Assembly (NCBI GenBank): GCA_964562685.1
Contig: CAZLUP010000003.1
Location: 31,586-95,585, forward strand
DNA length: 64,000 bases
Origin: an uncultured bacterium
GTDB lineage: Bacteria; Cyanobacteriota; Cyanobacteriia; Cyanobacteriales; Xenococcaceae
Reading direction: 5' to 3'
Part shown: positions 27,727 to 50,809 of the stretch, piece by piece
Layout of the letters: each line of letters opens with the position of its first letter
Position numbering within the stretch: the stretch's first letter is position 1
Notes under the pieces: generated by a model
Databases searched by the model: none
Told to the model about the DNA's origin: nothing
Seen by the model: the letters and a program-made list of their open reading frames with translations, nothing else
Translations under genes and position numbers: made by a program

Positions 27727-29910
27727 TTAAGACCAATTTAATTCCATGCCAAGGTACTCCTCTAACTGGGTATTATGACTTCTAAAAAACTCACTTAGAT
27801 TTTTTTGAAACTGTACGTCTTGATAATTGTAAGAACCGACATTATGCTTTTTAAATTGTAGATTTGGATTATCAGCCAAGTTGAGAAAATGATAAATTTG
27901 TTGCATGGTTTGTTCTGGTTCTGCCAATAACTGTTCATTAGTTAAAATTAAAAGTTGTTTTTTAGAAAATACTTTCAACCATCTTTTAAGAGTATGAATA
28001 TATAAACCGCCTAATAAATAAATTGATTTTTTTTCTCGGTAAAACTGTTCAATCTGCTCTGGAGAGTCAAGCTCGTTAAGCATTTTTAATTCAGAATTAA
28101 TTGCTACTTCTAAAGAATTATTTTCCCAACCATGCTTGAGACGATGATAATAGTGAGAAATGGCTCTTTCAACAGGATTTCTCAAAATAGTAATTAATTT
28201 AATCTGAGGAAATAAAGCAAAAACTTGTTCTTGAATATCACTAATTAAATAAGAAGGGGTAGCTTCTCCTGTAATAAAATTCGTCCCTTCAGGAATTGCA
28301 GGAAAATGAGATAAATACCAATTAAGATCTGGTTGTAAATAATCACTGCGATTGAAATATCCTACTTCTTTCTTTACGGCTGGTAAGATTTGAGGATGTT
28401 GTGATAAATAATGATAAAGAGAGGTTGTGCCAGCTTTTGCTGCTCCAATAATTAGAAAATTAGGTCCTTGAGACTGTTTAAAATTCCAATGTTTTTCGAC
28501 AAAATGTGGTCGATTTTGGCTGACGATAATATAACAAGCATGACGATAATGATTAGCTGCCTCGTCAAATTTTTCTTGTTTAGTTAGTAAATCTCCTATA
28601 GTAATGTAATATTCTGAAGGGAAACTAGTTTCTCTTTGTTGTGCTTGTTGGTAACAATTAAGAATTTGCTCGATTTGATTAGGATCAATTTTTTGAATAT
28701 TTCTAATTTTAGTATAAATAGATTTGATGTTTGGTTGAATTTCAATTGCTTGCAAGTAAAATTCAATAGCTTGATTCCATTTTTTTTGTTTTTCAAAAAT
28801 TGTACCTAAATGATTATAAAATTGACCAATTTTATAATTTCTATTTTGTTCATGTCCCAGCCAAGTCAATTCAGGATCAATTTCTAAAGCTTTTTGATAA
28901 CTCTGCATAGCTAAAGACCAATTTTTTTGCTGAAAATAAATTTGCCCTAATTGCTCAAAAAAGAAAGCATTTTCTGTACTAACATCGATAGCTTTTTGAT
29001 AAATAGCGATCGCTTGTTCCCATTCTCCTTGTTTAAGATAAATTTGTCCTAATTGATGATAAGATTCCAGATAACTAGGTTCGATTTCAATAGCTCGAAG
29101 ATAAGAATAAATTGCTTTGTCTAGATAATTTTGTTTAGTATAAGCTAATCCTTGTTCATAATATAATTGGGCTGAGTCTGGATATAATTGTGTTAAAAGA
29201 AGAGGTTTGAGGATACCAATATTTCTCAGGGTTTTGACTATATTATGTTCGTTACCATCATAGGCTTGGAGGGTCACATTGTGGCATCCTTGAAGACGTG
29301 CTGCATGAACTGTGTCTAAATGATTTTCTCGACAAAAATAAATGTAAAATTGAGTTTTAATCTTGTTTTTATCTTGCCAGAGCTTTAGTAAATCAAAGTA
29401 TTTATTGGAAGTTTCAGGATTAAAAGATTTATATAATTTATTTATCTGAGATTGCCAACGATTATCGCCAAAAATAGACCGATTTTTAGGGTCAATAAAA
29501 GTTTGAGGAGAAAAAGCGATCGCAGCATCTGCTTCTAATAAATAGCCGAATAAAATTGCTGCATATCCTCCAGCAGAGTTACCAGTAACTACTACTTTTT
29601 GAATTTGTTCTTTTTGAATAAAATCTTTTAAATAACTAACAATTTGTTCAATATTATCTCCTACTAATTTAATTCCGTTTTGATACCAACTTTGCAAACA
29701 ATCTCTTAAAAAGATTTTTTTTATTTCAAAGTCTGAGGTAATTCGAGAAAATTCATAAGGAGGAATTCCCATTCCTTGAGAAATACCACCACAAGTAATC
29801 AATAAAATATTACTGTTATACTGACAATCTATCTGAATACCTTCTGCTTGTTGTAAACTTTTATGGGTTTGTTCTCTTAATTCGCTTTCGGCAAAACTTG
29901 CAGCAGTCAT
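27727..29910 (-). CDS. tri-domain protein: alpha/beta-hydrolase-like N-domain + TPR repeats + sulfotransferase
   Basis: GNSAGG nucleophile-elbow-like motif (N-terminal domain). TPR units (AIYSYLRAIEIEPSY...). 5'-PSB loop GAAKAGTTSLY and 3'-PB motif ILRNPVERAISHYYH. Confidence 0.8.
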   Translation of the reverse strand: MTAASFAESELREQTHKSLQQAEGIQIDCQYNSNILLITCGGISQGMGIPPYEFSRITSDFEIKKIFLRDCLQSWYQNGIKLVGDNIEQIVSYLKDFIQKEQIQKVVVTGNSAGGYAAILFGYLLEADAAIAFSPQTFIDPKNRSIFGDNRWQSQINKLYKSFNPETSNKYFDLLKLWQDKNKIKTQFYIYFCRENHLDTVHAARLQGCHNVTLQAYDGNEHNIVKTLRNIGILKPLLLTQLYPDSAQLYYEQGLAYTKQNYLDKAIYSYLRAIEIEPSYLESYHQLGQIYLKQGEWEQAIAIYQKAIDVSTENAFFFEQLGQIYFQQKNWSLAMQSYQKALEIDPELTWLGHEQNRNYKIGQFYNHLGTIFEKQKKWNQAIEFYLQAIEIQPNIKSIYTKIRNIQKIDPNQIEQILNCYQQAQQRETSFPSEYYITIGDLLTKQEKFDEAANHYRHACYIIVSQNRPHFVEKHWNFKQSQGPNFLIIGAAKAGTTSLYHYLSQHPQILPAVKKEVGYFNRSDYLQPDLNWYLSHFPAIPEGTNFITGEATPSYLISDIQEQVFALFPQIKLITILRNPVERAISHYYHRLKHGWENNSLEVAINSELKMLNELDSPEQIEQFYREKKSIYLLGGLYIHTLKRWLKVFSKKQLLILTNEQLLAEPEQTMQQIYHFLNLADNPNLQFKKHNVGSYNYQDVQFQKNLSEFFRSHNTQLEEYLGMELNWS

Positions 29911-30019
29911 CTTTAAATTTCTCTTCTATATTTACCTGATGGATAAATTATCTAGAGGAAGGGAAAAAAGAGAATTCTTCCCCTATATAAATAGCAACAA
30001 TTAGGATAAGTTAATTTTC

Positions 30020-31489
30020 CTAATCCCAGTCAAATTTCATTCCTAAAAATTCTTCTAATCTTTGATTGTGAGGTTGAAAACATTCCGCTAGAAGCTGATG
30101 CATTTCTGGGTCAATATTAGAATAAGAACCAGCATTGTAAGTTTTATAATCTTTAAGTTGATAATTTGGTAAACCAATAAAATCAAAAACTTGATTCAGC
30201 GTAGCTGGCGTATTTTGATAAAAGTCTTCGCTTTTTAAAATCAAAAACTTCTCTTTAGGAATAATTGACATCCATTGCTCTAAAAAATAAATATAAACAC
30301 TTTCTAATAAACAACCAGAATTACCTTTTCTACTTAAATTTCCATCAAAAGAAGGTTGTGACATTTTTTTTATTAATTCAATTTCATCTGCGATCGCTTC
30401 TTTTAAAGAACGAAATTCTGCGCCAACTTTACGCCAGTGATAATATTGAGAAATAGAGCGGTCTATTGGATTTCTCAACATCACAATTAATTTCATGTCA
30501 GGAAATAATTCGAGAATTCTGGGAGCTACTTCTGGATAATAAAGATGATCAGGACTACCTTCACCAGTGACATAATTTTTTCCTTCAGCAATGGCAGGAA
30601 AATGAGCTAAATACCATTCTTTACCAGCATCAAAATTAAAATTAAAGAATTTAACTTCTTTTTTAAGTGCAGGAACAAATTGAGGATGAAAAGTTAAATA
30701 TTCATAAAGAGAAGTTGTTCCGCAACGCATCGAACCAATAATGACAAATTTCGGTTCTTGTCCTCTTTTTCCTGCATCCCAAGCTTGTTCAATAAACTTC
30801 GGTTTTAGTTTTAAATTTTGTCGATAACTAGCATTTTGGTAACAACTTATTGCTTCATCTAAACGACCTAATTTAGTTAAAATATCTCCTAAATTAGAAT
30901 AACCAAGTAAATAATCAGGACTTTTCCGAATTACTTCTTGATATGGTTTAATCATTCTTTCTAGTAATTCAGGTGAAAGTTTTTCTCGTTGAACTTTAAT
31001 TAATAAACGATCATGAGGTTGCCAAAATTCAGGCGCGATCGCAATTGCTTTTAAATATGCGTCAATTGCTGCTAAAGTATCACCTTGGCGATTATATAAA
31101 TCTCCAATATAAAGATAAAACCATTTACGATCTAAATCTAATTCAACTGCTTGTTCATAAATCGAGATCGCATCTTGAAAAAGATTTTTTTTAGCTAAAG
31201 TTTCGCCAATCTTTTGATATAAACTAATTGCTTTATCTTGGTGATTTAATTTAATTAAATACCTGCCCAATTCTTGGCAAGAATTAAAGAGTTTAGGTTC
31301 TAACTCCACAGTTTTATGATAATAATTAATTGCTTCTTGCCAATAACCTTTTTTAGTTAGGGCTTTGGCTAAACGATGATGAGCTTGAGCCGATTTTGGT
31401 TCAGTTTTAACAGCACGACGATAAGCAAAAACAGCTTCTTCTAAATTACCTTGTTGTTCTAAGGTAGCTCCTAATTGTAAATCTTTCAT
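30020..31489 (-). CDS. TPR repeat + sulfotransferase fusion protein
   Basis: N-terminal TPRs. GSMRCGTTSLYEY and MLRNPIDRSISQYYH PAPS-binding motifs. The C-terminus is paralogous to that of the 27727-29910 product. Confidence 0.8.
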   Translation of the reverse strand: MKDLQLGATLEQQGNLEEAVFAYRRAVKTEPKSAQAHHRLAKALTKKGYWQEAINYYHKTVELEPKLFNSCQELGRYLIKLNHQDKAISLYQKIGETLAKKNLFQDAISIYEQAVELDLDRKWFYLYIGDLYNRQGDTLAAIDAYLKAIAIAPEFWQPHDRLLIKVQREKLSPELLERMIKPYQEVIRKSPDYLLGYSNLGDILTKLGRLDEAISCYQNASYRQNLKLKPKFIEQAWDAGKRGQEPKFVIIGSMRCGTTSLYEYLTFHPQFVPALKKEVKFFNFNFDAGKEWYLAHFPAIAEGKNYVTGEGSPDHLYYPEVAPRILELFPDMKLIVMLRNPIDRSISQYYHWRKVGAEFRSLKEAIADEIELIKKMSQPSFDGNLSRKGNSGCLLESVYIYFLEQWMSIIPKEKFLILKSEDFYQNTPATLNQVFDFIGLPNYQLKDYKTYNAGSYSNIDPEMHQLLAECFQPHNQRLEEFLGMKFDWD

Positions 31490-31549: not shown

Positions 31550-34500
31550 TTATTTCTGCTTGTTTTTAATCAAAGCTAAAATTTCCTGTTCGTAGCGAGC
31601 AAAAATATTTTGCCAATCATAGGCTTGCTCGACTAATTTACGACCATTGACACTTAATCTTGTCTTTAATTCAAGATCTTTACTAACCTGTATCACCGCT
31701 TCAGCAAATTCTTTGGGAGTATCACGAATTAAAATGTTTACTCCATCAGTTACCTCTAATCCTTCGCAACCAAGACTGGTAGAAATCACTGGTAAACCCA
31801 TTGCCATAGCATGAAGAATTTTGATCCTTGTCCCACTACCCAAACGGATGGGTACAATTGCAATTGAGCAATTCTGAGCTACATCGCTCATATTTTTGGG
31901 ACTAGCGACGATTTCAATATCTGAATAACGAGTAGCTAAAGCTTGAATTTCAGCAGAAGGTTCGCGTCCGGCAATACAGAAAGGAAGCTGAGAATTTTGT
32001 TGACGAATTAGTGGTAAGATCTCTTCAGCAAAGTATAGTACAGCATCAATGTTGGGATAATAAGTCATTGTTCCCATGTACAACATTTTGTGTGCCTGAC
32101 TATGGTTGACAGGAGCAATGTTGCGGGTGTCTATCCCATTCTTAACTACGATCACTTTACTGTTCGGACAACGACTGAGCAATTCTTGTCGATCATCTTC
32201 ACTAACTACAGTAGTTAAAGTAAATTTAGACCAAGTTTTGTTTTCGTAGGCTTCAAGTAATTTAGATTCCCGTTCAGAATCCAAAAACACTCTAACTGCT
32301 TCTACATCTGTTGCAGCCGTTGCAATATCGGACTCGGTAATCGTAGCGCATTGTTTGAGAATTCTTGACTCAATATTATGTTCATTTAAGATTGTCAGAT
32401 GATTTTTGAACAGTTCATGATAGGGAGTAGCAAAAATAAAATCAAATAAAACTGCATCGAACTTAACTTGACTAAATTGTTGGAGAACTTTCCACATATT
32501 CCAAGTTCCCCATTGGTAGATTTGTTTTTGTTGATCGACTCGACGTGGTGCTAAAGGTACACCTAGTTTGACCATAATGGCGCGATCGCAATACTCTTGT
32601 AAATCCTCTTCAATTTGATAATCAGCCTCATCAAAAATAAAAGAAACAACTGTGAGATGATGGCGACTCCCTAAATATTTGATTTCTTCAAACATCCGAA
32701 TCGCTCCCCCTGTATTGGGAGGATAGGGAGGATAGGGAGTAATTAGCAAAATTCTCAGCTGATCATGGCATTCAGTTTGCTTTAACTGCTCACAATAATC
32801 TAGAACTTGCTGCCAACGGTGTAATAATTGCTGAGATTGTTCTCTATTTTCGTAAAATCCTGCAAAATCTGGATTAAGTTCAATTGCTCGACTATAAGCT
32901 GAAATTGCCTCCGCTAAATCCCATCTACCCTTCAGTGCATCACCGTAACCATTGTAATACCAACAGTTATTCGGTTCTAATTGTAAAGCTTGACGATAAC
33001 ATTCGATAGCGCGATCGAGATTAGCCTGTTTTGTCAAAGCATTACCTAATTGAAAATAAGCTTCTGGATAATTAGGATGAAATTCTAAAGCTGTATTTAA
33101 AGCAACAATTGCCAGATCGATCTGATTTTCTCCTAAATATGTTTTAGCCTTGGCGAGAAAAGCTTCAGCTTTTTCTGGTTGTTCTTTTGATGATGCTGGA
33201 AGACTACTAAGTAAAAGTTTTTGATTAAACTGTGCTTGTTCGGGTAATAACTTGGCTAATTGAGTCGATATTTCACGATTTTGAGGCTGGTATTGAAGAG
33301 CTATTTGATAATAAACGATCGCTTTTTCTAGCTGATTCTGTTTAACTAAGGCATTACCTAACTGTAAATACAGTTTGCCATTATCTGGTTGCAGCGCGAT
33401 CGCTTTATAATAATTGTGAAGATTATCAGGATTTAATTGAATCTCGCGCTGATAATAACTCAAAGCTCGATCCGAATCAATTTTAGAGCGATGTCCTAAG
33501 GCATCAGCTAATTTAATTCCTACCGTCGGCAAATCTGGCTTAAGTTCAATGGCTCGACGATAAGCTACTACTGCTTCATCCCATTTACCCAAGTTACTAA
33601 AAATTTCGCCTAAATTATAATAAGCCCAAGGAAAATCGGGGTTTAATTCACTCGCTCTTCTAAAAGCTACCGCAGCCTCTTCCCATCGGCTTAATTGAAC
33701 TAAGGCATCACCTAAATTATTATGTGTCCAACAAAAATCATCTTTGACTTGAATTGCTGCTTGATAAGCAGTAACCGCTTCTTCCCATCGGTATACTTTA
33801 CTCAGTGCATCACCAAGATGATGACAAGCTTCCCAATAATCAGGTTGTAGTTTGATCGCTTGTTGATAACAGATAATAGCATCTTGCCATTGTTTTTGTT
33901 GAGTGAAAACAAATCCAAGACGATAATGATGTAGAGCAATTTGAGAATTATATTGAACCGCCTTGCGATAATATTGAATTGCTTCTTCTAATTTTCCTTT
34001 GCTATGTAAAATTTCTCCTAGATGTAAATAAGCTTCTGCTAAATTAGGAGCGAGTTCCAAAGCACGACGATAACAAGTTATCGCTTCATTTAGTTGATTG
34101 TGTTTGACAAAAGCATTGCCCAATTGCAAATGTTCTTCTGCTTTGACACTGCCCGGCTCCAAACTATAAGCTTGATACCAATATTTAATTGCCTCAGCAG
34201 ATTGATCCGCTTTTTCTAACGCCCTAGCTAAATTACGATAAACACCTGCCAATTGAGGATTTAATGTAATTGCTCGCTGATAACAGTTAATCGCTTCTTG
34301 CCACTGTTGTTTTTGAGCGTATAAACTACCTAAATTTGAGTAAATAGCTGCCGAGTTAGGATTGATTTGAGCTTTTTGTTGATATTGAGCAATCTTTAAA
34401 TCAATAGCTTCAGTAGGAACAGGACTTGTTTGTGTAGTTATTTCCTGTTTAACTGGGGAACGCAAGTCCGTGCCGTCTCCGTTCGGGAACGACTCGGAGT

Positions 34501-35842
34501 TCAACTCCGAGTCGCAAGCCCGAAGTGATTCCCACCCGTTGAACGGCGGAGTACCTGCGATTTGATTGGGAGACTGCAAAACATTCTCACTAGTTGATAG
34601 CAATTTTTGTTGAAGAGGATTATTTCCTTTTAATCTATTTTGATAGTGCCAAGCTTGCTCATAATAAGTAGCAGCTTCTTGCCATCGTCCTAATTGTTCC
34701 AAAACTTGAGCCAATTTTTGATATCCTTCTTGTAAGGAAGGCTCTAATTTAATTCCATAACGATAGTGAATTATTGCTTGTTCTAACTGATCTTCTTCTC
34801 TAAGCCAATCTGCTAACAGAATATGATCTTTGGCCTTCGCTCGCTCTGGCTCTAAGCTCAAAGCTTGATGATGATATTGCCAAAATTTACTCGTTTCTCC
34901 TAACTGTTGATAAACTTTCGCTAGATTTTCATAAGCACCTGCAAATTTGGGGTTAATAATAATCGCTTTTTGATAATATTCAATTGCCTGTTGCCATTGC
35001 TTTTGCCCAGCATATAAACTGCCTAAATTTGCATATACTTCAGCTAAATCTGGTTGTATAGCGATCGCTTTAGCATAATAACCCATTGCTTCGGCAGTTT
35101 TACCACTTCTTTGCAGTGCATTGCCCCAAATTTTATAAGCCTCCGCAGAATTAGGCTCAATTTCCAAGACTCGCTGACAGGCAACTATTGCTTGTTGCCA
35201 TTCTTGGCGATCACAATAAGCTAAAGCCTGTTGTAAATATACTCGAGCAGCTTCTAATCCTAAGCTATTAGCAATTTCAGGTTTGTTAGAATGAGGCTCT
35301 TGATTAGTAGCCGATTTTTCAATTAATTTAAAAGAAAAAGACGATTTTTCTGAAGAATAAACTGCTGATAGCTGTCTATATTGAGGTGAATTAGGATCAA
35401 AGTCAGGAAGTTGTAATTTTGTTGAGAAGCTGCGATGGGAATGCTCTTCTGTTTCGCTGGTGTTGACAGTTAGGTGTGACAAAGAATTTTTTTCCAACTG
35501 TGACAGTGAAGTCTTCCCTTCAGCAGTCCAAGAATTGTTGAGCATAATCGCCTTGCGATAGTGAATCATTGCCTCGGGAATTTTACCGATTTTTTGCAAA
35601 CCTACCGCCAATTTTTGACGAGCCAAACCTAAATCTGGTTCAATTTCTACTGCTTGACGATAAAGCTTAATCGCCTCAGTAAACTTACCTTGTTCCCAAA
35701 GTCGATCTGCTTGATAAATTTTAGTACTGGCTAAATCTGGTAATTTTAAGTAAGAGTTAACATCTGGAGACTTTGGATTAACATTGTCATTATTTTTGAC
35801 AAAAGCAGCAGAATTCAACAAATTTTTCAGACGATCAAACAT
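31550..35842 (-). CDS. giant TPR array fused to a C-terminal GT4-type (GT-B) glycosyltransferase
   Basis: About 1000 aa of TPR units (AEVYANLGSLYAGQKQWQQAIEYYQKAI...). C-terminal LRILLITPYPPYPPNTGGAIRM...GSGTRIKILHAMAMGLPVISTSLGCEGLEV. Confidence 0.8.
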   Translation of the reverse strand: MFDRLKNLLNSAAFVKNNDNVNPKSPDVNSYLKLPDLASTKIYQADRLWEQGKFTEAIKLYRQAVEIEPDLGLARQKLAVGLQKIGKIPEAMIHYRKAIMLNNSWTAEGKTSLSQLEKNSLSHLTVNTSETEEHSHRSFSTKLQLPDFDPNSPQYRQLSAVYSSEKSSFSFKLIEKSATNQEPHSNKPEIANSLGLEAARVYLQQALAYCDRQEWQQAIVACQRVLEIEPNSAEAYKIWGNALQRSGKTAEAMGYYAKAIAIQPDLAEVYANLGSLYAGQKQWQQAIEYYQKAIIINPKFAGAYENLAKVYQQLGETSKFWQYHHQALSLEPERAKAKDHILLADWLREEDQLEQAIIHYRYGIKLEPSLQEGYQKLAQVLEQLGRWQEAATYYEQAWHYQNRLKGNNPLQQKLLSTSENVLQSPNQIAGTPPFNGWESLRACDSELNSESFPNGDGTDLRSPVKQEITTQTSPVPTEAIDLKIAQYQQKAQINPNSAAIYSNLGSLYAQKQQWQEAINCYQRAITLNPQLAGVYRNLARALEKADQSAEAIKYWYQAYSLEPGSVKAEEHLQLGNAFVKHNQLNEAITCYRRALELAPNLAEAYLHLGEILHSKGKLEEAIQYYRKAVQYNSQIALHHYRLGFVFTQQKQWQDAIICYQQAIKLQPDYWEACHHLGDALSKVYRWEEAVTAYQAAIQVKDDFCWTHNNLGDALVQLSRWEEAAVAFRRASELNPDFPWAYYNLGEIFSNLGKWDEAVVAYRRAIELKPDLPTVGIKLADALGHRSKIDSDRALSYYQREIQLNPDNLHNYYKAIALQPDNGKLYLQLGNALVKQNQLEKAIVYYQIALQYQPQNREISTQLAKLLPEQAQFNQKLLLSSLPASSKEQPEKAEAFLAKAKTYLGENQIDLAIVALNTALEFHPNYPEAYFQLGNALTKQANLDRAIECYRQALQLEPNNCWYYNGYGDALKGRWDLAEAISAYSRAIELNPDFAGFYENREQSQQLLHRWQQVLDYCEQLKQTECHDQLRILLITPYPPYPPNTGGAIRMFEEIKYLGSRHHLTVVSFIFDEADYQIEEDLQEYCDRAIMVKLGVPLAPRRVDQQKQIYQWGTWNMWKVLQQFSQVKFDAVLFDFIFATPYHELFKNHLTILNEHNIESRILKQCATITESDIATAATDVEAVRVFLDSERESKLLEAYENKTWSKFTLTTVVSEDDRQELLSRCPNSKVIVVKNGIDTRNIAPVNHSQAHKMLYMGTMTYYPNIDAVLYFAEEILPLIRQQNSQLPFCIAGREPSAEIQALATRYSDIEIVASPKNMSDVAQNCSIAIVPIRLGSGTRIKILHAMAMGLPVISTSLGCEGLEVTDGVNILIRDTPKEFAEAVIQVSKDLELKTRLSVNGRKLVEQAYDWQNIFARYEQEILALIKNKQK
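34470..34557. repeat. GC-rich palindromic mini-element inserted in-frame in the TPR-GT4 gene
   Basis: Termini GTGCCGTCTCC...GGAGTACCTG. Internal perfect hairpin GACTCGGAG ttcaa CTCCGAGTC. Translated as part of the linker peptide GTPPFNGWESLRACDSELNSESFPNGDG. Confidence 0.6.
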
Positions 35843-37309: not shown

Positions 37310-38152
37310 TTATTGAGCAGCACGATCATAACATTGTTCTGCTTCTTGTTCTCTACCTTGTTTCTTTAAAATATCTCCGATTAAACGGAAAATATAGATA
37401 GCATCTGGTTTAACTTCTATAGCTTTTTGATAACAGCGAATTGCCGTATCTAACTGATCTTTTTGCTGAAAAACATCTCCTAATTTCTTGTATGCCGAAC
37501 CAGAATCGGGCTTAAGCTGAGTTGTTTTCTGATAATAACGAATTGCCTCATCAAGTTGTCCTTGTTTGAACAATGCGTCCCCTAAAGATAAATAAACTTT
37601 AGCCGAATCTGGTTTCAGTTGAATCACTTTTTGATAATAACTAATCGCTTCATCAAAACGTTCCTTTTTCATCAAAGTATCGGCATACTTAGTATAAAAA
37701 CCAGCGTTCCAGTTTGAATTCAATTCTGCTGCTTTTTGATAATAATTAATTGCAGATTCGATCTGATCTTGTTCTTGTAGAAGCAAATCACCTAATTCTT
37801 TATAAACTTTAGCAGGAAGATCGGGTTTTAATTCAATCGCTTCTTGATATGCTGCGATCGCAGCATAAATTTTGTTTTGTTGTTGTAAAACTTTAGCTAA
37901 TTTTAGATATGGAGTATAATTTTCTGGATTTAAACCAATCATGCGTTGATAGCATTTTACTGCTTCTGACCAATTTTGCTGAGATTCATAAATTTCAGCT
38001 AACTTGGGTAATGGTTGAGTATAGTTAGGTTTAATTTTAATTGCTTGCTGATAGCTTTGAATTGATTCTTCAAAATTTCCTTGTTCTTTTAATTCATTTC
38101 CTTTTTCAAAATTAGCTTTAGCTTTTTCTCCAGTTTTGTTAATAGAACTCAT
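37310..38152 (-). CDS. stand-alone TPR repeat protein
   Basis: Consecutive 34-aa units, e.g. AINYYQKAAELNSN and AISYYQKVIQLKPDSAKVY. Confidence 0.8.
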   Translation of the reverse strand: MSSINKTGEKAKANFEKGNELKEQGNFEESIQSYQQAIKIKPNYTQPLPKLAEIYESQQNWSEAVKCYQRMIGLNPENYTPYLKLAKVLQQQNKIYAAIAAYQEAIELKPDLPAKVYKELGDLLLQEQDQIESAINYYQKAAELNSNWNAGFYTKYADTLMKKERFDEAISYYQKVIQLKPDSAKVYLSLGDALFKQGQLDEAIRYYQKTTQLKPDSGSAYKKLGDVFQQKDQLDTAIRCYQKAIEVKPDAIYIFRLIGDILKKQGREQEAEQCYDRAAQ

Positions 38153-39484: not shown

Positions 39485-39531
39485 AAATTACAAAGTTAAT
39501 AATAATTAGACAGAGTTTTTTGTTCAAAAAA

Positions 39532-42210
39532 CTAGATAGAAGCTTGAAGCACTTCAAAAAGCTCGTAAATATATTTTGTTGGTAAAAATCTTGACATATC
39601 TTCTAATAGTTGAAACCATAAAATAGACCCTTGATGTTTATTAAGAGAATCCCAAGGTTTAGGACGATCTAGTAAATGGATAATTAAACTTTGATCAGAA
39701 AACATCAATTCATCAAATGTTCTTTGGTCATAAGGAGGATAAAAATCATTAAATCGAGGAGATAAATCGGCAATTTGACCATCAAATGCTATATTCAAAG
39801 CACACTGATCATGGTAAAGAAGTTTATGTCCCTCTTCTACAGCAACTCTAACTGCTTGATTTAATAAATTAGTTAATTTAGGATGAGTTGAATCAAAAGC
39901 AATGACTCCAGAATTATAGTATTTTTTACTTTCTAAGTTATTAATTTTAATTGCCTCTTCTATTTCAGACTTTGGTCTTTCTCTACGAGCTGCAATTGGA
40001 TAACCATTAAAATCTAGATAATCTATTTCTTCAAGAGAATCAAGAATAATAGTATCTGAATCTATGTATAACCACCGAGAGTTAGAGCAAATATCATTCA
40101 ATACTTGACCAAAAAATAATCTATAATAAGCTGTTCTTGAAAGAGAATCTCCTCCAGTAAAAACACCATAACCAGTAGTGAGTTTATAATCACTAAGCCC
40201 TTTGACTAAAGATTCAATATCTATAAATTCGATTATTAAATTTAAATTTCTAGCTAAAACTTGATAAGGTTCTTTAATCAATTTTAGAGTTCGGTTATCG
40301 GCTACAACATAAATTGGGTTGTTACCTAGTTTATGTTTATTATGTTTATGCAGTGAAAATATTGATACTAAAGTTGGTAGACTATAAGCTTTGTCTGTAC
40401 AATAAAATATTTTTGTTTTAATTAATTCTAATTGAGAAAGTTGCTCATAAAAAATATTTTCTTTTAATCTTAATCTGTTTTCATAAATAATTAAATCTCT
40501 TGATAATGAGTTATCTTGTTTCATTAAAGAGATACATTGTCTGGCTTGACTTATTGGTTCTATTAATTGTTCAAGCAGAGCAGTTTTTATTAATAAAAAA
40601 TTCGCCCTAGTTTCTTGATTATCTATATAGTTTTCTATAACATTTAAAGCTTCTTTAAATTTTTTGCTTTTACGAACAACTTTAATAAATAAATTATGAT
40701 TGTGTACGTTTGTAGGTTCTTTAAAAATTGCTTCTGTTGCAAAATCAAAAGCTTTTTCCCATTCTCCCAATTCGCAAAATAATTTAGCTACAGCTTGATA
40801 ATAAGAATTAGGCGGGACGGTGATTGTTTGCAACTTATTAAAATAATCTTGAGCTTTATCTAAATTTCCTGAATAGCAATATAACTCTAGTAATCTAACT
40901 TTAACTTCTTCGTTATTAGGACAAATCGCTAAAGCTTGTTCAAGCATTTGAGCGGATTTATCCCAATCTCGTTTTGCTAAATATGCGTGTGCTGCTGCAA
41001 AGATAATATCAAAATCTTCTCCAAAAAAGCTTAAAGCTTGATTAAAAATTATTTCTGCTTGTTCAATTTTTTTATCTTCAATGTAAGAATATCCTAAACT
41101 AATATAAGACCATTTATTCTCTGGTTGACGCTCAATAGCTTTGCACCAATTAACTTGTGCTACTGATTTATTTCCTTGTTTTTTTTGTAATTCAGCTAAA
41201 CCAAGATAACCAAGAGCGTTATTAGGATCAATTTCAATGATTTTATTAAAACAAGCTTGAGCTTGTTGATATTCATTAATACTTTGGTAAGACTTTCCTA
41301 ATAAATGCCAGCACCATAAATTGCGATCATCTATATTTATTGCTTTTTCAAAAGATAAAATTGCTTCTTTAATTTTTGATTGATGAAAGTAAACTTCTCC
41401 CAGACAAATTAAAAGCCAAAATTTATCACCGAATTGTTGATTTACTGTTAGTAGAGTTTGTTCCGCATCAGAATATCTTTTTAATCTGAATAAGCATTCT
41501 CCTTTACGTAGCATGGCATGATAATGTTCAGGATTAAGAGCTAATGACTGTTCATACATAGTCAAAGCTTTTTGAAAATTCTTATTTTCAAAAATATCGT
41601 CAGCTTTTTTGAGAATTATTTCAAATGATTCTGAGGTAAAATACTTTTTAACAAGTTGAAAATTAGGTTCTATTTCTATGACTTTGAGGAAAAAATTATT
41701 GGCTTCATCTAGTTTGGATAACCTTTCATAAAGTTGACCAAGGCGATAATAAGCCCAATGAAAATTTTCATTCAAATTAATGACTTTGAGAAAATGTTTT
41801 TCAGCTAAATCTAGCTGATTCTGTTCCAACAAAATTTCTCCAAGCTTTTGATGAATTAAAAAATCATCTGGGTTAAGAGTTAATGCTTGTTGGTAAGCAT
41901 CAATTGCTTCAGCTATTTTACCTTGTTGGGCAAAGAAAAGTCCTAATCCATAATGACCCCAGTGAAAATCAGATTCAAGTACGACTGATTTATAAAAATT
42001 CTCGTAAGCTTCTGATGAATTTCCTTGTTCTAGAAAAGCTACTCCCAACTTAAAATAAATAGTAGCGGAATCAGGATGGTAGTATAAGCCTTGTTGATAA
42101 ATTTCAATAGCTTGTTGTATATTTCCTTCTTTTAAGAATGATGCTCCTCGGTCTAAGCATTCTTGGACTGATAATTCTTGAGACTGTTGGCTAATATTTG
42201 TTACGGTCAT
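39532..42210 (-). CDS. TPR array fused to a C-terminal GT8 glycosyltransferase
   Basis: N-terminal ~550 aa of TPRs. GT8 motifs YIDSDTIILD (DxD), YYNSGVIAFD, HDQCALNIAF and HLLDRPKPW. Confidence 0.8.
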   Translation of the reverse strand: MTVTNISQQSQELSVQECLDRGASFLKEGNIQQAIEIYQQGLYYHPDSATIYFKLGVAFLEQGNSSEAYENFYKSVVLESDFHWGHYGLGLFFAQQGKIAEAIDAYQQALTLNPDDFLIHQKLGEILLEQNQLDLAEKHFLKVINLNENFHWAYYRLGQLYERLSKLDEANNFFLKVIEIEPNFQLVKKYFTSESFEIILKKADDIFENKNFQKALTMYEQSLALNPEHYHAMLRKGECLFRLKRYSDAEQTLLTVNQQFGDKFWLLICLGEVYFHQSKIKEAILSFEKAINIDDRNLWCWHLLGKSYQSINEYQQAQACFNKIIEIDPNNALGYLGLAELQKKQGNKSVAQVNWCKAIERQPENKWSYISLGYSYIEDKKIEQAEIIFNQALSFFGEDFDIIFAAAHAYLAKRDWDKSAQMLEQALAICPNNEEVKVRLLELYCYSGNLDKAQDYFNKLQTITVPPNSYYQAVAKLFCELGEWEKAFDFATEAIFKEPTNVHNHNLFIKVVRKSKKFKEALNVIENYIDNQETRANFLLIKTALLEQLIEPISQARQCISLMKQDNSLSRDLIIYENRLRLKENIFYEQLSQLELIKTKIFYCTDKAYSLPTLVSIFSLHKHNKHKLGNNPIYVVADNRTLKLIKEPYQVLARNLNLIIEFIDIESLVKGLSDYKLTTGYGVFTGGDSLSRTAYYRLFFGQVLNDICSNSRWLYIDSDTIILDSLEEIDYLDFNGYPIAARRERPKSEIEEAIKINNLESKKYYNSGVIAFDSTHPKLTNLLNQAVRVAVEEGHKLLYHDQCALNIAFDGQIADLSPRFNDFYPPYDQRTFDELMFSDQSLIIHLLDRPKPWDSLNKHQGSILWFQLLEDMSRFLPTKYIYELFEVLQASI

Positions 42211-42283: not shown

Positions 42284-45200
42284 TTAAATCATCAAAAACT
42301 TTTTTAAAGAAGCTTTTACTACTTCACAACTATAGGGAATAAGTGCTTCTTGAGATTTTGTTGCTAGCTGATTCCAAATATTTTCATCTTGATAAAGTCT
42401 TAAAATTTGATTAGCAAATTCCTCAGTATTATTTGCTTCTAAAATATTTTCTTCGTGGATTAGATTCATTCCTTCTATCCCAATAGAAGTAGAGACAATT
42501 GGCAAGCCGTATTCCAAACTTTGTCCAATTTTTCCTTTCATTCCTGCGCCATATCTTAAAGGAGAAACAAACACTTTATGGCTTAAAAAATAGGAACTTA
42601 CATCAGAAATATATCCTGGTACAATAATGCGATCGCACTCTAAGTTTTTTACTTCTGGAGTCGGATTACTGCCAAGTAAAGTTACTTTTACTTTTGGTAT
42701 TTTTTCCCATACCAATGGCATAATTTCTTCACACAACCATAACACAGCATCTACGTTGGGGGGATGAGTGTAACTACCAATAAATAAAATATTTTCTCTA
42801 CTATGAAAATCTCTAGTTTCACCTAAATAAGGAGTATGAATATTGGGAATAACTGCTACATTAGAAACGCCTTGCTGTTTTAGTATTTCTTTTTCTACAG
42901 AAGTAACTGTAATAGTCAAATCTGCTTGGTGAGAAATGGTTAATTCCCTGGCTTGCATATTGATCCATTCAGTTGCTGCTTGCATATTTTTTTCTGGAGA
43001 TAATTCCCAAGCACGTTTCATTCTCAAATAATGTAAATCGATAGTGTCGTAGATAATTTTGATATCTGGTTGTTGCCGAATAATTGGGATATATTTTTCG
43101 TTAAGTTCGGGGCGACAAATCCAGGCAAAATCTACTAGAGGTAATCTAGCTTTGATCTGTTCTTCAGGAGTCGTTCCATAACCATCTTGAGTGTAGAGGA
43201 CTTCAATTTGAAGATTTTGTAAAATCGAGGTATAGGGTTCGTCTTTGACACCATTATCGGCTGTAAAGATAACGTGATAGTTAAGTTCTTTAAAGATAGT
43301 TAGAAGATGAAATAGGCGTTTTGAGCCTGATTCTTTGTCATAGCAAGGCATATAACTGTCTATGACTAAAATAGTTTTTTGTCCTGAGTATTTTCTTGCC
43401 GTTTGAGGCACATTTTCAGCACCTTGATTGGGTTGATAAAGTTCCGTTGCTAAGACTGATTGCCATTTTTGTTTAAATTTAGCTGCATTGATGACTTGAT
43501 ATTTTTTAGTACCGCTATGGGTAGAAGTTCCTGATGTGATGCCTTCATAATGTACTACTTCAGACTTTGGTTGATACATTACTTTTAAGCCTAAGCGATG
43601 ACGAATTGCAAAGCATAAGTCAGTATCTTCGTAGTAAGCAGGAGCAAAATCGGTTTCAAAGCCTTTTAAAGCTTCAAAAGTCGCTTTTTTAACCATTAAA
43701 CTTGCTCCCGAACAATAATCTACCTCCCGCAAGTAATTATATTGAGGGTCATGAGGATTATCGTTTCTGCCATAATTCCAACCAGAAGCATCCTGCCAAA
43801 TAATACCGCCAGCTTCTTGAAGAGAGCCTTGAGGATAAACTAGTTTTGAGCCTACTGCGCCTACCTGTTCGTCTTGGAGGAAGACATCAATTAAACTTTC
43901 AATACAGTTGGGGCGAATTTCTGTATCATTATTGAGGAAGTAAAGGTATTCACCTTTAGCTACTGCTGCACCTTTATTGCAAGAATGAATAAAGCCTAAA
44001 TTCTGATTATTATCAATCAAAATTAAGCCTTCAATCTCGCTTAACGTCTCTTGAGTCTTGTCTTGAGAACAGTCATTAATAACGATAACTTCAACTAAAG
44101 TAGTTGCTTGGATGTTTTTGACTAAGGCTTGTAAACATTGAAGAGTGTATTGAAGTTGGTTGTAGACGGGAATAATAATTGAAACCGTAGGGCAATCATT
44201 GTGAGGTAAAACTATAACTGATTGAATAGTGATAGCTTGATTCACTTCGGATGATGGTTGAGGATCACCAGTTACCAGGGATTCAAGAATTTTCTTGACA
44301 TCGGTTTGGGGATTTTGTTTGAGTAAAGTATTGTCTAATCGAATCGAAGCTTCCAAGTTGCGCGGTTGAACTTGCATTGCCATTTGATAGGCGATAACTG
44401 CTTCATCTAATTTTTCTTGCTTGACTAGAGCATTACCTAAACCAATATAAAGTTCTGCATTATATTTATCGATTGCTAATGCTTGATGATAGTTATGAGG
44501 TTCATCAGGATTTTTAGCGATCGCTTGGCGATAACATTGAAGTGCTAATTCGCGATCTTTTTGAATTCTTTGATAAAGAGCATCGCCTAATTTATTTTGA
44601 ATTTTTGGTAAATCTGAGTTGAGTGTAACTACCGACTGATAAGCGGTGATTGCTTCATTCCAAAGTTTGATTTTACTACAAGCTTCTCCTAGGTTGTAAT
44701 GTGACCAAACAAATTCGGGATTCAGTTTAACTGACTGACGAAGAGCATCAACGGCTTCTTGCCATTGTTCGATTTGAATTAGAGCGTATCCTAAATTATT
44801 GTGTGACCAAGAAAAATCTGGATTAATTTTAATTGCCTGACGATAAGCTTCAATTGCTTCATGCCATTTTTTTTGTTTGGTTAAAGCTTCGCCCCAATAA
44901 TGATAGGCTTCCCAGTAATTAGGCTCTAGTTGAATAGCTGCTCGATAATGATCGCTGGCTTTTTGCCATTGTTGTTGTTCAAAGCAAGCTTGAGCAATCT
45001 GATAATGTAGTGGGGCATAATTAGGACTGTTTTTCAGTCCTTGTTGATAACAATTGAGTGCTTGTTGTTTTTGTCCTGCTAAATTAAGTAACTCGCCAAG
45101 ACGCAGATAAGCCTCTCCTAAAGATGGTTGCAATTGAATTGCCTGGCGATAAAGTGCGATCGCTTTGTCAGATTTTCTTTGTTTTAATAACTGATTGCCT

Positions 45201-46723
45201 AATTGTAAATATTCTTCTGCTTTAATTTTTTCAGGTTCTAACTGAATTGCTCGCAACCAATAAGAAATTGCTTTGTTTTCTTCTCCTGACTGGGTTAAAG
45301 CTCTAGCTAAATTACGATAAGCTCCAGCAAAATTAGGATTGAGTTGGATTGCTTTTTGATAATGAGCGACTGCTTTTTGCCATTGTTTTTGTTCTGCATA
45401 GATACTAGCTACATTAGCTTGCGCTTCAGCCGAGTGAGGATTTTGCTCTGCTTTTTGTAAATATTGTTGTAATTTTGAATCAGGGTTTTGGGCTGAGGAA
45501 ATTTGTAATTGTTCTGGACTATGGTGAGAATTTAAAAATTTTTGTTGAATCGGATTAACTGTTAATTGATGAGGATTATTTTTAAGTTCTAAAACTCGCT
45601 GATAATATTTGCTAGCTTGTTGCCATTCGCCCAGTTGTTCTAAGGTGATAGCTAATTTTTGATGAGCTTCAATGGAAGTAGGAGCTAGTTCAATTGCATG
45701 GGAATACTGCTGAAGAGCCTCTTGAAATTTACCTATTTTAAGTAATTGTTCACCCAACTGAAAATGTTGTTGAAAAGCTAACTCGGGTTTGGCTTGTAAT
45801 TGAATTGCTAATTGATTATATTCTCTAACTTTATCTTGGTTGCCTAAATGTTCCCAAACTTTGGCTAAATGCTTATAAACACCAGGAAAATCAGGTTTAA
45901 AAACCAAGGCTTTTTGATAATAATTAAGTGCTAGTTGCCATTGTTGCTTGCTTGCATAAAGAGTACCTAAATTAGCATAAATTTCTGCTAAATCAGGACG
46001 TAATTCTAAAGCTTTAGCATAACAACCAATTGCCTCAGTTGTATTACCAATTCTTTGATAAGCATTACCTAAAAGTTTATAAGCTTCTACTATAGTTGGA
46101 TTGATTTTGAGAGCATTGTGACAAGCTTTAATTACTTCTTCCCATTGCTGATTTTCCCAGTAAATTGTTGCTTGTTCGAGATAAACTTGCGCTACTTCTA
46201 ATTTAGGCATCAAAATTTGAGTATTAGCAGTTATAGCTACTTGAGCTAAGTGGCAGGTACTCCCGAGTTCAACTCGGGAGACGGCACGCATCGGTGTTCC
46301 TCGGTCAGTTTTAGAAGATTGATGTGTCGGCATTTGCTGATATTGAGGTGTAAAATTTTGCCAACTAAAACTAGGCGCAGGTAACTGAATAAATTCAGGT
46401 TGTCTATCTTCGTTTTCAGATTTGATTTGTCTAGGTTTCATTTGAGAAATTGTTGGTGTAAACTTAGCTCGATTTACTTTTAAATTGATAGCATTCAAAT
46501 AATGAGCGATCGCCTCAGTGAAATTACCTTGTTGTCTTAAAATTATTGCTAATTTTTCATGAGTTTCAAGTGAATTGGGTTGAGATTTTAAGACTTGTCG
46601 ATATCCATAAACTGCTTCGTTTAAATTACCAAATCCCCAAAAATCAGTAGTTTGTTCAAACTTGATTGAAGCTAACTCTGAATTAGAAAAACTTACGAAA
46701 CTAGTTGTCGAATCTTCAGACAT
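42284..46723 (-). CDS. giant TPR array + GT2 + GT4-like (GT-B) triple-module glycosyltransferase
   Basis: TPRs to about aa 800. GT2 motifs [24 protein letters not shown] and [10 protein letters not shown]-terminal GT-B motifs [13 protein letters not shown]...[28 protein letters not shown]. Confidence 0.8.
46254..46287. repeat. short copy of the palindromic mini-element, opposite orientation, in-frame in the TPR-GT2-GT4 gene
   Basis: CAGGTACTCC CGAGTTCAACTCG GGAGACGGCAC. Its reverse complement has the same termini as 34470-34557. Translated as part of [11 protein letters not shown]. Confidence 0.6.
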
Positions 46724-49339: not shown

Positions 49340-49373
49340 GATTTGTTCCTAAATAGTAATGAATGAGATCAAA

Positions 49374-50267
49374 TTAGAGCAGCGATTGCCACTGAATCAG
49401 CATTTTATGTAAAGACTGTCGCCAATCAGGAGGATGTACACCCAAAGCTTTAGTGATTTTAGTTTTGTCAAGTACTGAATAAGCTGGACGTTCGGCAGGA
49501 GTAGGATATTGAGAAGTAGAAATTGGTATGATCTGCTTAACCTTGAGCGGAAATCCTAATTGTTTTGCCTCGGCAAAAATTGCTACAGCAAAGTCGTACC
49601 AACTAGCTACACCACTATTGGTAAAGTGATAAATTCCCGTTGGCAGAATTGAACTTCCAGCTATTTCTCTAGCAAGCATTTGAGTAATAGTTACCGCAAG
49701 ATCATAAGACCAAGTTGGACTGCCGATTTGATCGGCAACTACCCGAATTTCTTCTCGTTCTGCTCCTAGTCTCAGCATTGTTTTGACAAAGTTACCATGT
49801 CCGCGAGAACCATATACCCAGGCGGTACGGAGAATTAGATAACGGGAACAGTTATTGATAATGCCTTCTTCTCCTAACAGTTTGGATTTTCCATATATTC
49901 CAATTGGATTAGTAGCATCTTCTTCGTGATAAGGAGTATGATTGCAACCATCAAAAACATAATCTGTGGAAATATGTACCAACGTTGCCCCAATTTTTTC
50001 CGTTATTTCTGCCATTGCAGTAGGAGCAACACCATTAATGGTATTAGCCAGTTTTGCTTCAGTTTCAGCTTGATCTACTGCGGTATAGGCTGCTGCATTG
50101 ACAATAATACTGGGTTTGATTTGGCTGATTACTTCTTCAATCGACAGAGGATCGGTTAAATCTAACTGGTGACGTTTTAAGCCAATCACTTCTCCCAAAG
50201 AACTTAGAGTTTGTTGCAACTCCTGACCTACTTGTCCTGTAACTCCTGTAAGAACAATTTTACTCAT
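49374..50267 (-). CDS. rfbD: dTDP-4-dehydrorhamnose reductase
   Basis: MSKIVLTGVTGQVGQEL and YGKSKLLGE motifs. I trimmed the start to the ATG at 50267, which abuts the rfbC stop; the track ORF extends to 50345. Confidence 0.85.
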   Translation of the reverse strand: MSKIVLTGVTGQVGQELQQTLSSLGEVIGLKRHQLDLTDPLSIEEVISQIKPSIIVNAAAYTAVDQAETEAKLANTINGVAPTAMAEITEKIGATLVHISTDYVFDGCNHTPYHEEDATNPIGIYGKSKLLGEEGIINNCSRYLILRTAWVYGSRGHGNFVKTMLRLGAEREEIRVVADQIGSPTWSYDLAVTITQMLAREIAGSSILPTGIYHFTNSGVASWYDFAVAIFAEAKQLGFPLKVKQIIPISTSQYPTPAERPAYSVLDKTKITKALGVHPPDWRQSLHKMLIQWQSLL

Positions 50268-50809
50268 AAAAATACCTCGGCTGTTTGTAAAGGTTGGGCT
50301 GCTTGGTCTTTTGCCGAAAGAATAGGAGTAGTTTGTAGAGGCCAATCAATGTTGAGAGTGGGGTCATTCCAAAGAATCGCTCTTTCGTATTCAGGGGCAT
50401 AGTAGTCAGTAGTTTTATAGAGAAAATCTGCTGTTTCAGACAAAACCAAAAAACCATGAGCAAATCCTGGAGGAACCCAAAATAATCTTTTATTTTCTGC
50501 ACTCAAGAGGCAACTTACCCACTCTCCAAAGGTAGGAGAATTTTTTCTGATATCAACTGCCACATCAAACACCTCTCCAATGACTACTCGGACTAATTTG
50601 CCTTGAGGCTGTTGAATTTGATAGTGTAATCCTCTGAGAACGTTTTTAGCAGAGCGAGAGTGATTATCTTGAACAAATTTCGCGTTAATACCTGTTTTTT
50701 GAGCAAAAGTTTTCTCGTTGTAACTTTCTAGGAAAAAACCGCGATCGTCACCAAACACTTGTGGTTCGATAATGATAACTTCAGGGATTTTAGTGCTAAT
50801 TACCTTCAT
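50264..50809 (-). CDS. rfbC: dTDP-4-dehydrorhamnose 3,5-epimerase
   Basis: Cupin motifs FGDDRGFF, RGLHYQ and GFAHGF. Confidence 0.9.
   Translation of the reverse strand: MKVISTKIPEVIIIEPQVFGDDRGFFLESYNEKTFAQKTGINAKFVQDNHSRSAKNVLRGLHYQIQQPQGKLVRVVIGEVFDVAVDIRKNSPTFGEWVSCLLSAENKRLFWVPPGFAHGFLVLSETADFLYKTTDYYAPEYERAILWNDPTLNIDWPLQTTPILSAKDQAAQPLQTAEVFL

Follow-up and report, generated by a model that had tools for sequence, protein, structure and literature searches.

The element described here is a 23-kb block of minus-strand genes in a 64-kb stretch of DNA (hereafter the window) from an organism closely related to Stanieria cyanosphaera PCC 7437. This block probably encodes a cytoplasmic assembly line, scaffolded by tetratricopeptide repeats (TPR), for a sulfated, rhamnose-containing surface glycan of a Stanieria-like (Pleurocapsales) cyanobacterium. 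It was established from an open reading frame (ORF) listing together with Pfam and NCBIfam scans, and its borders lie well inside the window. We found 11 minus-strand genes in the block (seven large genes and four rfb/rml genes), which are transcribed in the order rmlC, rmlD, rmlA, rmlB, followed by genes encoding proteins of 1479, 892, 357, 280, 1430, 489, and 727 amino acids (table 1).

Five of these products are fusion proteins in which TPR arrays, either N-terminal or internal, are joined to transferase domains. Pfam analysis revealed six such domains, including two carbohydrate-type sulfotransferases, two GT4, one GT8, and one GT2 glycosyltransferase, all six of which are fused to TPR. 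Alongside these, the block encodes a serine-esterase domain, one protein made up of TPR only, a sulfotransferase-like protein with weak support, and all of rmlCDAB. An earlier interpretation of this DNA, made without database searches (the sequence-only reading), had listed nine genes running head to tail, with every confidently assigned transferase attached to a TPR array. Its domain calls and the TPR attachment were borne out, and the catalytic motifs were found to be intact; however, the minus-strand genes number 11 and their run is broken by a plus-strand gene. No signal peptide, transmembrane region, or other hydrophobic segment was detected in any TPR-fusion protein of the block, and on this basis these proteins are predicted to be soluble and cytoplasmic. 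Owing to the lack of signal peptides, a periplasmic TPR scaffold of the AlgK/PelB/BcsC type was considered and rejected.

All four enzymes of the dTDP-L-rhamnose pathway were identified, with Pfam scores far above the cut-offs, and RmlABCD are predicted to supply dTDP-L-rhamnose. RmlA belongs to the long form of this family (model TIGR01208, rmlA_long; 512 bits, cut-off 320) and contains an NTP_transferase domain and a left-handed beta-helix. The likely start of rmlD is at position 50267, which gives a protein of 297 amino acids (the S. cyanosphaera orthologue has the same length) and an overlap of 4 nt with the rmlC stop.

To define sulfotransferases that use 3'-phosphoadenosine 5'-phosphosulfate (PAPS), we required a 5'-phosphosulfate-binding loop (5'-PSB, K/R-x-G-T-T), a 3'-phosphate-binding motif (3'-PB, R-x7-S), and a score above the Pfam gathering threshold. 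Both motifs are present in the 727-aa protein (KAGTT and RNPVERAIS) and in the 489-aa protein (RCGTT and RNPIDRSIS), whose scores of 78 and 56 bits compare with a cut-off of 22, and the two sulfotransferase domains share 41% identity. The PDB sequences nearest to the domain of the 727-aa protein are heparan sulfate NDST1 (E = 1e-22) and 3-OSTs.

The N-terminal 245 residues of the 727-aa protein, which had been called a hydrolase from the sequence alone, match no Pfam or NCBIfam model. Homology searches detected 51 relatives of this region, nearly all of which are stand-alone proteins of ~230 amino acids from diverse bacteria. A putative catalytic triad (G110-x-S112-x-G114, D199, and H222) is invariant in 47 homologues. 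The AlphaFold2 (AF2) model has a pLDDT of 89.6, and Foldseek searches returned EstA (E = 1e-9) and a total of 928 matches at E ≤ 1e-3, which are esterases. These results confirm the hydrolase call and assign the region to a serine-esterase domain of the alpha/beta-hydrolase type. Planktothrix, Bacteroidota, Parcubacteria, and marine metagenomes are among the sources of the homologues.

The stand-alone 357-aa protein matches Sulfotransfer_3 with an E-value of 9e-4, which is below the cut-off, and has only the 5' loop, in the form of an invariant K-C-G-S-T that resembles a 5'-phosphosulfate-binding loop. A search of 5.8 billion sequences yielded just six homologues, of which four are at least 44% identical and one carries PF00685. 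The AF2 model of the 357-aa protein has a pLDDT of 80, and the top Foldseek matches are sulfotransferases, although with TM-scores of only 0.3–0.5. PDB sequence searches were uninformative for both this protein and the esterase domain. The sequence-only reading had proposed a possible sulfotransferase fold: the invariant loop and the Foldseek matches speak for it, the sub-threshold Pfam score and the low TM-scores against it. Such a call is fair but only moderately supported.

The glycosyltransferase (GT) domains also have intact motifs. In the 1479-aa protein, the GT2 domain contains YYEDTD (ED-x-D) and has chondroitin synthase K4CP as its best PDB match, and the GT4 domain contains E-x7-E and forms a conserved didomain module with GT2. 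A search of 1.84 billion cluster representatives revealed 8703 that match this GT2-GT4 module at E ≤ 1e-30. The 150 best matches all cover the whole module, and by phmmer only 32 of them carry TPR. When 42 of the other top-150 members were scanned with Pfam, extra GT modules were detected, as well as methyltransferase (5), sulfotransferase (3), and TPR (5) domains. Considering that this large family is mostly free of TPR, GT2-GT4 appears to be a common building block of multi-module polysaccharide-type enzymes, to which TPR is one optional attachment of several. The relatives are named either "O-antigen biosynthesis protein" or "GT2 family glycosyltransferase" in the source records. PDB sequence and profile searches with GT2-GT4 found only generic GT2 relatives, which do not discriminate between polysaccharide and protein glycosyltransferases.

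The GT8 domain of the 892-aa protein contains DSD (DxD) and KPW motifs and matches 3tzt, GlyE, and LgtC in the PDB; it resembles lipopolysaccharide (LPS) galactosyltransferases and, more weakly, the protein glycosyltransferase GlyE. When the TPR-stripped regions were compared with NCBIfam, glycosyltransferases of the extracellular polysaccharide (EPS) and LPS types were found. The GT4 domains are nearest to an EPS-associated family, with a score below its cut-off (for the 1430-aa protein, 199 bits to TIGR03087). A further stand-alone GT2 glycosyltransferase of 320 amino acids is encoded at 61590–62552 on the minus strand, 11 kb from the cluster and amid unrelated genes near tRNA-Gln.

Judging from the array lengths, the block encodes ~85 TPR repeats in total, and a tandem-repeat scan of the TPR-coding DNA did not reveal any recent repeat expansion. 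The 1430-aa and 1479-aa proteins have paralogous arrays that run colinearly and share 39% identity over 843 amino acids; this is beyond generic TPR similarity and points to a conserved specific function, possibly with shared partners.

To examine whether the block is conserved, we compared it with related genomes. The 1479-aa protein is 88% identical to its counterpart in S. cyanosphaera, and orthologues with identical architecture and 53–60% identity were detected in Xenococcus, Pleurocapsa, Chondrocystis, and Xenococcaceae metagenome-assembled genomes (MAGs). The gene order of S. cyanosphaera matches from the beta-helix gene beside the block through rmlCDAB to the TPR-GT4 gene; the cluster is real rather than a chance arrangement. 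The gene for TPR-GT2-GT4 is immediately preceded by rmlCDAB in four loci (those of S. cyanosphaera, Chondrocystis, and two MAGs), and rmlC heads the locus in L001, L004, L005, and L006. The genes downstream of this core vary among relatives and include glycosyltransferases, sulfo- and methyltransferases, WcbI, and genes for 3-deoxy-D-manno-octulosonic acid (Kdo). In one relative, genes for a sulfotransferase, a methyltransferase, and a TPR-GT2-GT4-GT4 protein of 1913 amino acids occupy this position. In L005 (Joint Genome Institute metagenome contig Ga0654433_000107), the core is followed by a GT4 and, at 18700–22077, by a complete Kdo-synthesis set (KpsF-like SIS/CBS, KdsB, KdsA, and KdsC) and a WcbI-TPR fusion; such genes are a hint that the glycan contains Kdo or ends in it, as is seen in ABC-transporter-dependent systems. 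One MAG has only the rml + TPR-GT2-GT4 core, with no tailoring genes downstream. The locus of Pleurocapsa PCC 7319 lacks rml and contains genes for an RTX protein, TPR-GT2, GT4, a sulfotransferase, and GT2-GT4. A scan of genome contigs with the 727-aa protein yielded one weak TPR-only locus.

GC content is 0.27–0.29 over the sulfotransferase-like and TPR-GT8 genes (38001–42000), compared with 0.35–0.38 over the two largest TPR-GT genes and ~0.35 for the window, which suggests that the low-GC part was acquired or exchanged separately. A conserved core, interchangeable tailoring genes, and a drop in GC together look like the pattern of variable surface-glycan loci.

The plus-strand gene occupies a 1.47-kb gap in the minus-strand run, so the block comprises at least two transcription units. 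A scan of the gap (35.7–38.5 kb) for promoters and terminators gave counts at background level. Its product has 17% Gln in the coiled coil and only coiled-coil noise in Pfam and NCBIfam; it is 86% identical to a protein encoded at the matching position and in the matching orientation in S. cyanosphaera, and may serve as a ruler of chain length, as a regulator, or in the binding of carbohydrates.

Based on these observations, the following pathway may be proposed. The TPR-GT2-GT4 protein would act as a two-active-site enzyme that extends a rhamnose-containing chain on a lipid-linked acceptor, similar to bifunctional capsule or O-antigen polymerases, and TPR-GT8 and TPR-GT4 would append additional sugars. 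Sugar hydroxyls would be sulfated from PAPS by the two TPR-sulfotransferases and possibly also by the 357-aa protein. The esterase domain may strip an O-acyl group before sulfation, in a "deacylate then sulfate" order analogous to that of NDST, although this step is speculative. The TPR arrays would serve as scaffolds that dimerize the enzymes, gather the complex at the membrane, and present the lipid-linked chain, as in Cps3D/Cps7D and TviD-TviE, rather than as selectors of protein substrates. Priming, translocation, and outer-membrane export would be encoded elsewhere; for translocation across the membrane, a Wzm/Wzt-type ABC-2 system is most likely and Wzx/Wzy less so. The product might be a sulfated EPS, a capsule or sheath polymer, or an O-antigen-like chain.

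The sequence-only reading had noted that no priming or export genes are visible and had taken this as a mark of an unconventional system. The observation itself was confirmed: among window ORFs of at least 90–100 amino acids, Pfam detected no Wzx, Wzy, Wzc, Wza, WbaP/WecA, or Wzm/Wzt, and a hydrophobicity scan of the window found no ORF with 8–12 transmembrane regions of the Wzx/Wzy type. The 10 kb past the right end of the window contain housekeeping genes and no Wzx, Wzy, Wzc, primer, or ABC exporter. An ABC2_membrane_6 ORF (14804–15583) was considered as an exporter and rejected; it belongs to another Pfam family (PF06182) and lies 12 kb away beside sugar-uptake permeases. In the related loci, no exporter, primer, or pilin gene was found within 10 kb. 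On the other hand, cyanobacterial sulfotransferase genes belong for the most part to putative EPS clusters described as "more or less partial" (PMC8205485), and cyanobacterial O-antigen genes and EPS assembly and export genes are scattered, with unlinked Wza-type, Wzc-like, five ABC-2, and O-antigen-polymerase (Wzy)-like genes in S. cyanosphaera (PMC4594306). The nearest export-type genes in that genome are 76–190 kb or more from the orthologous locus. Since such genes are scattered, the argument from a missing exporter loses its force, and the arrangement is normal for cyanobacteria rather than a sign of an unconventional system.

Several points weigh against the proposed glycan assembly line. 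No acceptor, product, or export route was observed, and all steps past the domain calls are inferred. No primer or exporter is linked in any of the seven loci, so export could be of the ABC or of the Wzx/Wzy type. The parallel with Cps3D and TviD/TviE is one of architecture only, as their catalytic domains share no homology with those of the block, and the TPR arrays (800–1000 residues) are far longer than in characterized capsule enzymes. In addition, the GT8 relatives include GlyE, and the GT2 profile weakly matches GmaR, so that the sequences would also allow protein acceptors.

The sequence-only reading had preferred TPR-guided rhamnosylation and sulfation of proteins and had named a sulfated rhamnose polymer as its second alternative; our analysis favors the second, considering the conserved rml-GT core and the carbohydrate-type sulfotransferases. 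If the former were correct, TPR would bind proteins in the cytoplasm, for instance pilins or S-layer, sheath, or RTX-type proteins, and a sulfated rhamnose O-glycan would be built on the protein, similar to the action of OGT/SPINDLY, FlmG, or GmaR. The TPR domain of FlmG indeed binds its flagellin substrates (PMC7591256), and a TPR-GT41 Ogt has been implicated in cyanobacterial pilin processing (PMC12288463). However, no GT41 domain was found in the block, whose GT2, GT4, and GT8 types are typical of polysaccharide loci, and cyanobacteria have no flagellin. Although all transferases are TPR-fused and predicted to be soluble and cytoplasmic, most occurrences of the GT2-GT4 module are in multi-module "O-antigen biosynthesis" proteins that lack TPR. 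The distant relationship of GT8 to GlyE would fit protein modification, whereas the sulfotransferases resemble, at the sequence level, glycan rather than tyrosylprotein sulfotransferases. Minor-pilin genes lie 650 bp from the block end, and an RTX-repeat gene follows the orthologue in Pleurocapsa PCC 7319, but no candidate substrate gene is conserved beside the core across loci. Finally, the absence of a linked lipid-carrier enzyme has to be set against a total of four GT and two or three sulfotransferase domains with variable tailoring genes, including Kdo genes, which suit a polymer better than a site-specific modification. Thus, modification of proteins is unlikely. Its more elaborate form, a modular TPR-addressed system for protein O-glycosylation and glycan sulfation, composed of GT2, GT4, GT8, and sulfotransferase domains, in which superhelices of 800–1000 residues recruit specific proteins (for example, pilins or proteins of the envelope, sheath, or S-layer) ahead of their export, is somewhat more unlikely; if true, bacteria would possess an equivalent of OGT/SPINDLY by which sulfated rhamno-oligosaccharides are built on proteins.

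The same pilin genes also bear on how the glycan might be secreted. A route through type IV pilus or type II secretion system (T2SS)-like machinery has previously been proposed for hormogonium polysaccharide and slime, and the hps locus of filamentous cyanobacteria pairs five GTs with four pseudopilins (PMC12475490, PMC12288463). In the window, five prepilin-type genes are located just downstream of the block on the same strand (table 1), and S. cyanosphaera is listed as motile; the adjacent pseudopilins could then work as a piston, with PilQ forming the gate in the outer membrane. Export by way of the pseudopilin locus had also been suggested from the sequence alone. The five genes encode a 526-aa PilX_N/DUF7305 protein with weak EF-hand matches, a PilV-like protein of 200 amino acids, two GspH-like proteins of 168 and 185 amino acids, and a 410-aa protein with an HpsC/PilW-like N-terminus. 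Such a composition resembles that of the usual core set of minor pilins that prime type IV pili, and the scores against the Hps equivalog models are far below the cut-offs (HpsB, 29 vs. 150 bits; HpsC, 45 vs. 200; and, for the GT2 domain, HpsE, 33 vs. 300, and HpsN, 38 vs. 425). Such matches barely extend past the generic prepilin N-terminus or the GT2 core, and the 526-aa protein matches no Hps model. We know of no Hps glycosyltransferase that is fused to TPR. Moreover, an unrelated gene for a DNA phosphorothioation-associated protein and a 650-bp gap divide the pilin genes from the glycan block, and in five other loci no pilin gene lies closer than 10 kb to the orthologous core. GT genes adjoin pseudopilin genes as in hps, but this adjacency is not conserved, and secretion of this kind is highly improbable. 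Whether the block is one system or two adjacent independent ones was also considered: rml and TPR-GT2-GT4 (with GT8, the sulfotransferase-like protein, and the TPR-only protein) might form a rhamnan-type unit, and TPR-GT4 with the two TPR-sulfotransferases a separate unit for a different glycan. Such a division, for which the gap with its conserved opposite-strand gene, the differing GC along the block, and the core standing alone in one MAG may be cited, is improbable, because synteny with S. cyanosphaera extends over both halves (to the TPR-GT4 gene at least), the paralogous long arrays, one per half, suggest shared partners, and relatives again join the core with sulfotransferases and GT4s.

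Other neighboring genes were also examined. The gene between the pilins and the glycan block is an orphan; no dndA–E genes were seen in the window. On the other side, HpnA was considered as a sugar epimerase of the cluster and rejected, as it passes the hopanoid-associated model instead. It is adjoined by a gene for a right-handed beta-helix protein of 689 amino acids (the pair spans 51028–54193), whose N-terminal RRQTF motif is maybe a twin-arginine signal and which might be a periplasmic polysaccharide-processing enzyme. Both genes are kept beside the rml genes in S. cyanosphaera.

Table 1. Features of the glycan block and its neighbors (positions in the window; aa, amino acids)
Feature	Position	Strand	Evidence or remark
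Minor-pilin operon, five prepilin-type genes	21440–26583	-	Pfam/NCBIfam
DNA phosphorothioation-associated protein 4	27233–27700	-	TIGR04062, 202 bits (cut-off 74); between glycan block and pilins
Esterase-TPR-sulfotransferase protein, 727 aa	27727–29910	-	Alpha/beta-hydrolase + TPR + Sulfotransfer_1
Sulfotransferase domain, carbohydrate type, residues 466–727 of 727-aa protein	27727–28515	-	Sulfotransfer_1, 78 bits
TPR linker array, residues 246–465 (~6 repeats) of 727-aa protein	28516–29175	-	TPR_1, 110 bits
Predicted serine-esterase (alpha/beta-hydrolase) domain, residues 1–245 of 727-aa protein	29176–29910	-	Structure and triad
TPR-sulfotransferase protein, 489 aa	30020–31489	-	TPR + sulfotransferase
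Sulfotransferase domain, residues 236–489 of 489-aa protein	30020–30784	-	Sulfotransfer_1, 56 bits; Sulfotransfer_3, 57.5 bits
TPR array, residues 1–235 of 489-aa protein	30785–31489	-	TPR_2, 92 bits
TPR-GT4 protein, 1430 aa	31550–35842	-	~1000 aa of TPR, then GT4
GT4 (GT-B) domain, residues 1001–1430 of 1430-aa protein	31550–32842	-	PF13692, 83.5 bits (residues 1251–1389)
TPR array, residues 1–1000 (~28 repeats) of 1430-aa protein	32843–35842	-	TPR_11, 391 bits, 16 stretches
Plus-strand gene within cluster, 247 aa; Gln-rich coiled coil (~residues 15–120) and C-terminal globular domain of ~120 aa	36238–36981	+	Conserved in S. cyanosphaera
TPR-only protein, 280 aa, ~8 repeats	37310–38152	-	TPR_1, 179 bits; conserved in S. 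cyanosphaera
Sulfotransferase-like stand-alone protein, 357-aa ORF (352 aa from probable start)	38411–39484	-	Sub-threshold Sulfotransfer_3
TPR-GT8 protein, 892 aa	39532–42210	-	TPR, then GT8
GT8 domain, retaining hexosyltransferase type, residues 561–892 of 892-aa protein	39532–40530	-	PF01501, 92.8 bits (residues 601–855)
TPR array, residues 1–560 of 892-aa protein	40531–42210	-	TPR_2, 180 bits
TPR-GT2-GT4 protein, 1479 aa	42284–46723	-	~800 aa of TPR, then GT2, then GT4
GT4 (GT-B) domain, residues 1131–1479 of 1479-aa protein	42284–43333	-	PF13692, 82 bits (residues 1310–1446)
GT2 domain, residues 801–1130 of 1479-aa protein	43334–44323	-	PF00535, 96.5 bits (residues 848–976); PF13641
TPR array, residues 1–800 (~22 repeats) of 1479-aa protein	44324–46723	-	TPR_1, 315 bits, 13 stretches
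rfbB/rmlB, dTDP-glucose 4,6-dehydratase, 355 aa	47088–48155	-	PF16363, 317 bits; PF01370
rmlA (long form), glucose-1-phosphate thymidylyltransferase, 357 aa	48266–49339	-	TIGR01208, PF00483
rfbD/rmlD, dTDP-4-dehydrorhamnose reductase	49374–50345	-	PF04321, 358 bits
rfbC/rmlC, dTDP-4-dehydrorhamnose 3,5-epimerase, 181 aa	50264–50809	-	PF00908, 252 bits
HpnA, hopanoid-associated sugar epimerase	51028–52008	+	471 bits (cut-off 368)

Sulfated polysaccharides are a hallmark of cyanobacteria, of which only the synechan cluster has been dissected so far. If the assembly-line model is correct, the locus would represent a second, widespread design for sulfated glycans, in which all cytoplasmic glycosyl- and sulfotransferases are anchored on TPR scaffolds. 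The rml + TPR-GT2-GT4 core would then be a candidate rhamnan-type polymerase in Pleurocapsales, and interchangeable tailoring genes could account for strain-specific surface chemistry. The locus also allows one to ask whether long TPR arrays organize polysaccharide assembly generally, as they do in a few pathogen capsules. Neither a novel type of export nor a novel system for modifying proteins is indicated by the present evidence.

We found no description of TPR-sulfotransferase or TPR-GT clusters of cyanobacteria in the full-text literature. The statement in the sequence-only reading that no characterized system has this architecture was nevertheless too strong, because TPR-containing capsule enzymes have been characterized in other bacteria. 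In Actinobacillus pleuropneumoniae, Cps3D/Cps7D, polymerases of ABC-transporter-dependent (group 2) capsules, combine TPR with two transferases, and the TPR domain dimerizes the enzyme and is required for elongation of the lipid-linked primer (PMC11666461). The role of TPR is therefore not confined to choosing protein substrates. These proteins are likewise soluble and cytoplasmic, with an N-terminal TPR followed by two transferase domains and with export functions on separate proteins, which is the architecture of TPR-GT2-GT4. However, their catalytic domains are TagF-like and GT4 instead of GT2 and GT4 and are not homologous, their TPR region has ~260 residues compared with 800–1000 here, their locus includes kps export genes, and sulfation is not involved. 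No Cps3D chain was found among the PDB sequence and profile matches of the GT2-GT4 region, and neither Wzm/Wzt nor KpsM/KpsT, nor the KpsS/KpsC pair of group 2 capsules, is encoded in the window.

A similar relationship was observed with the Vi antigen system. TviD is a hydrolase-fold O-acetyltransferase whose nine TPRs are needed for membrane association and for binding of the GT4 polymerase TviE, VexE carries ten TPRs, and the Vi enzymes act in the cytoplasm on the nascent polysaccharide (PMC8760489). As in the esterase-TPR-sulfotransferase protein, a hydrolase-fold modifying enzyme is fused to TPR, and VexE provides a second TPR-fused modifying enzyme. On the other hand, TviD is SGNH-like with a C-terminal TPR, whereas here an alpha/beta-hydrolase esterase precedes TPR and sulfotransferase; the Vi locus contains its ABC exporter, which this cluster lacks, and no sequence homology to TviD/TviE was detected.

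A cyanobacterial parallel in content is the synechan (xss) cluster of Synechocystis PCC 6803, which also contains several GTs and two PAPS-type sulfotransferases and whose product includes rhamnose and sulfate (PMC8205485). The block described here has two sulfotransferase and four GT domains in one cluster. By contrast, xss carries Wzx, Wzy, a polysaccharide co-polymerase (PCP, Wzc), a priming phosphoglycosyltransferase, and the XssQ/R/S regulators; none of these is present in our cluster, and the first four were also not found in the window or the 10 kb beyond its right end. The term "TPR" does not occur in the main text or in the supplementary files examined of the synechan paper (PMC8205485).

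OGT/SPINDLY and FlmG share with the block the order of an N-terminal TPR and a C-terminal glycosyltransferase in a soluble cytoplasmic protein. They differ in that several GT families and sulfotransferases are present here and that the catalytic module mostly lacks TPR in relatives. The catalytic regions belong to PF00535, PF13692/PF00534, and PF01501 rather than to GT41 (PF13844), which is also absent from the precomputed Pfam annotation of the 1479-aa protein. The similarity of TPR-GT4 to FlmG is superficial, and no flagellin, flagellar, or Pse/Leg genes were found in the window. To our knowledge, cyanobacteria do not have flagella.

Thus, both TPR-scaffolded cytoplasmic assembly of polysaccharides and cyanobacterial clusters for sulfated glycans are already known. 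What is unusual in this locus is that all confidently assigned transferases are fused to TPR, on arrays far longer than those of the characterized capsule enzymes, and that these include two sulfotransferases, with sulfotransferase-TPR and esterase-sulfotransferase fusions that have no characterized counterpart.

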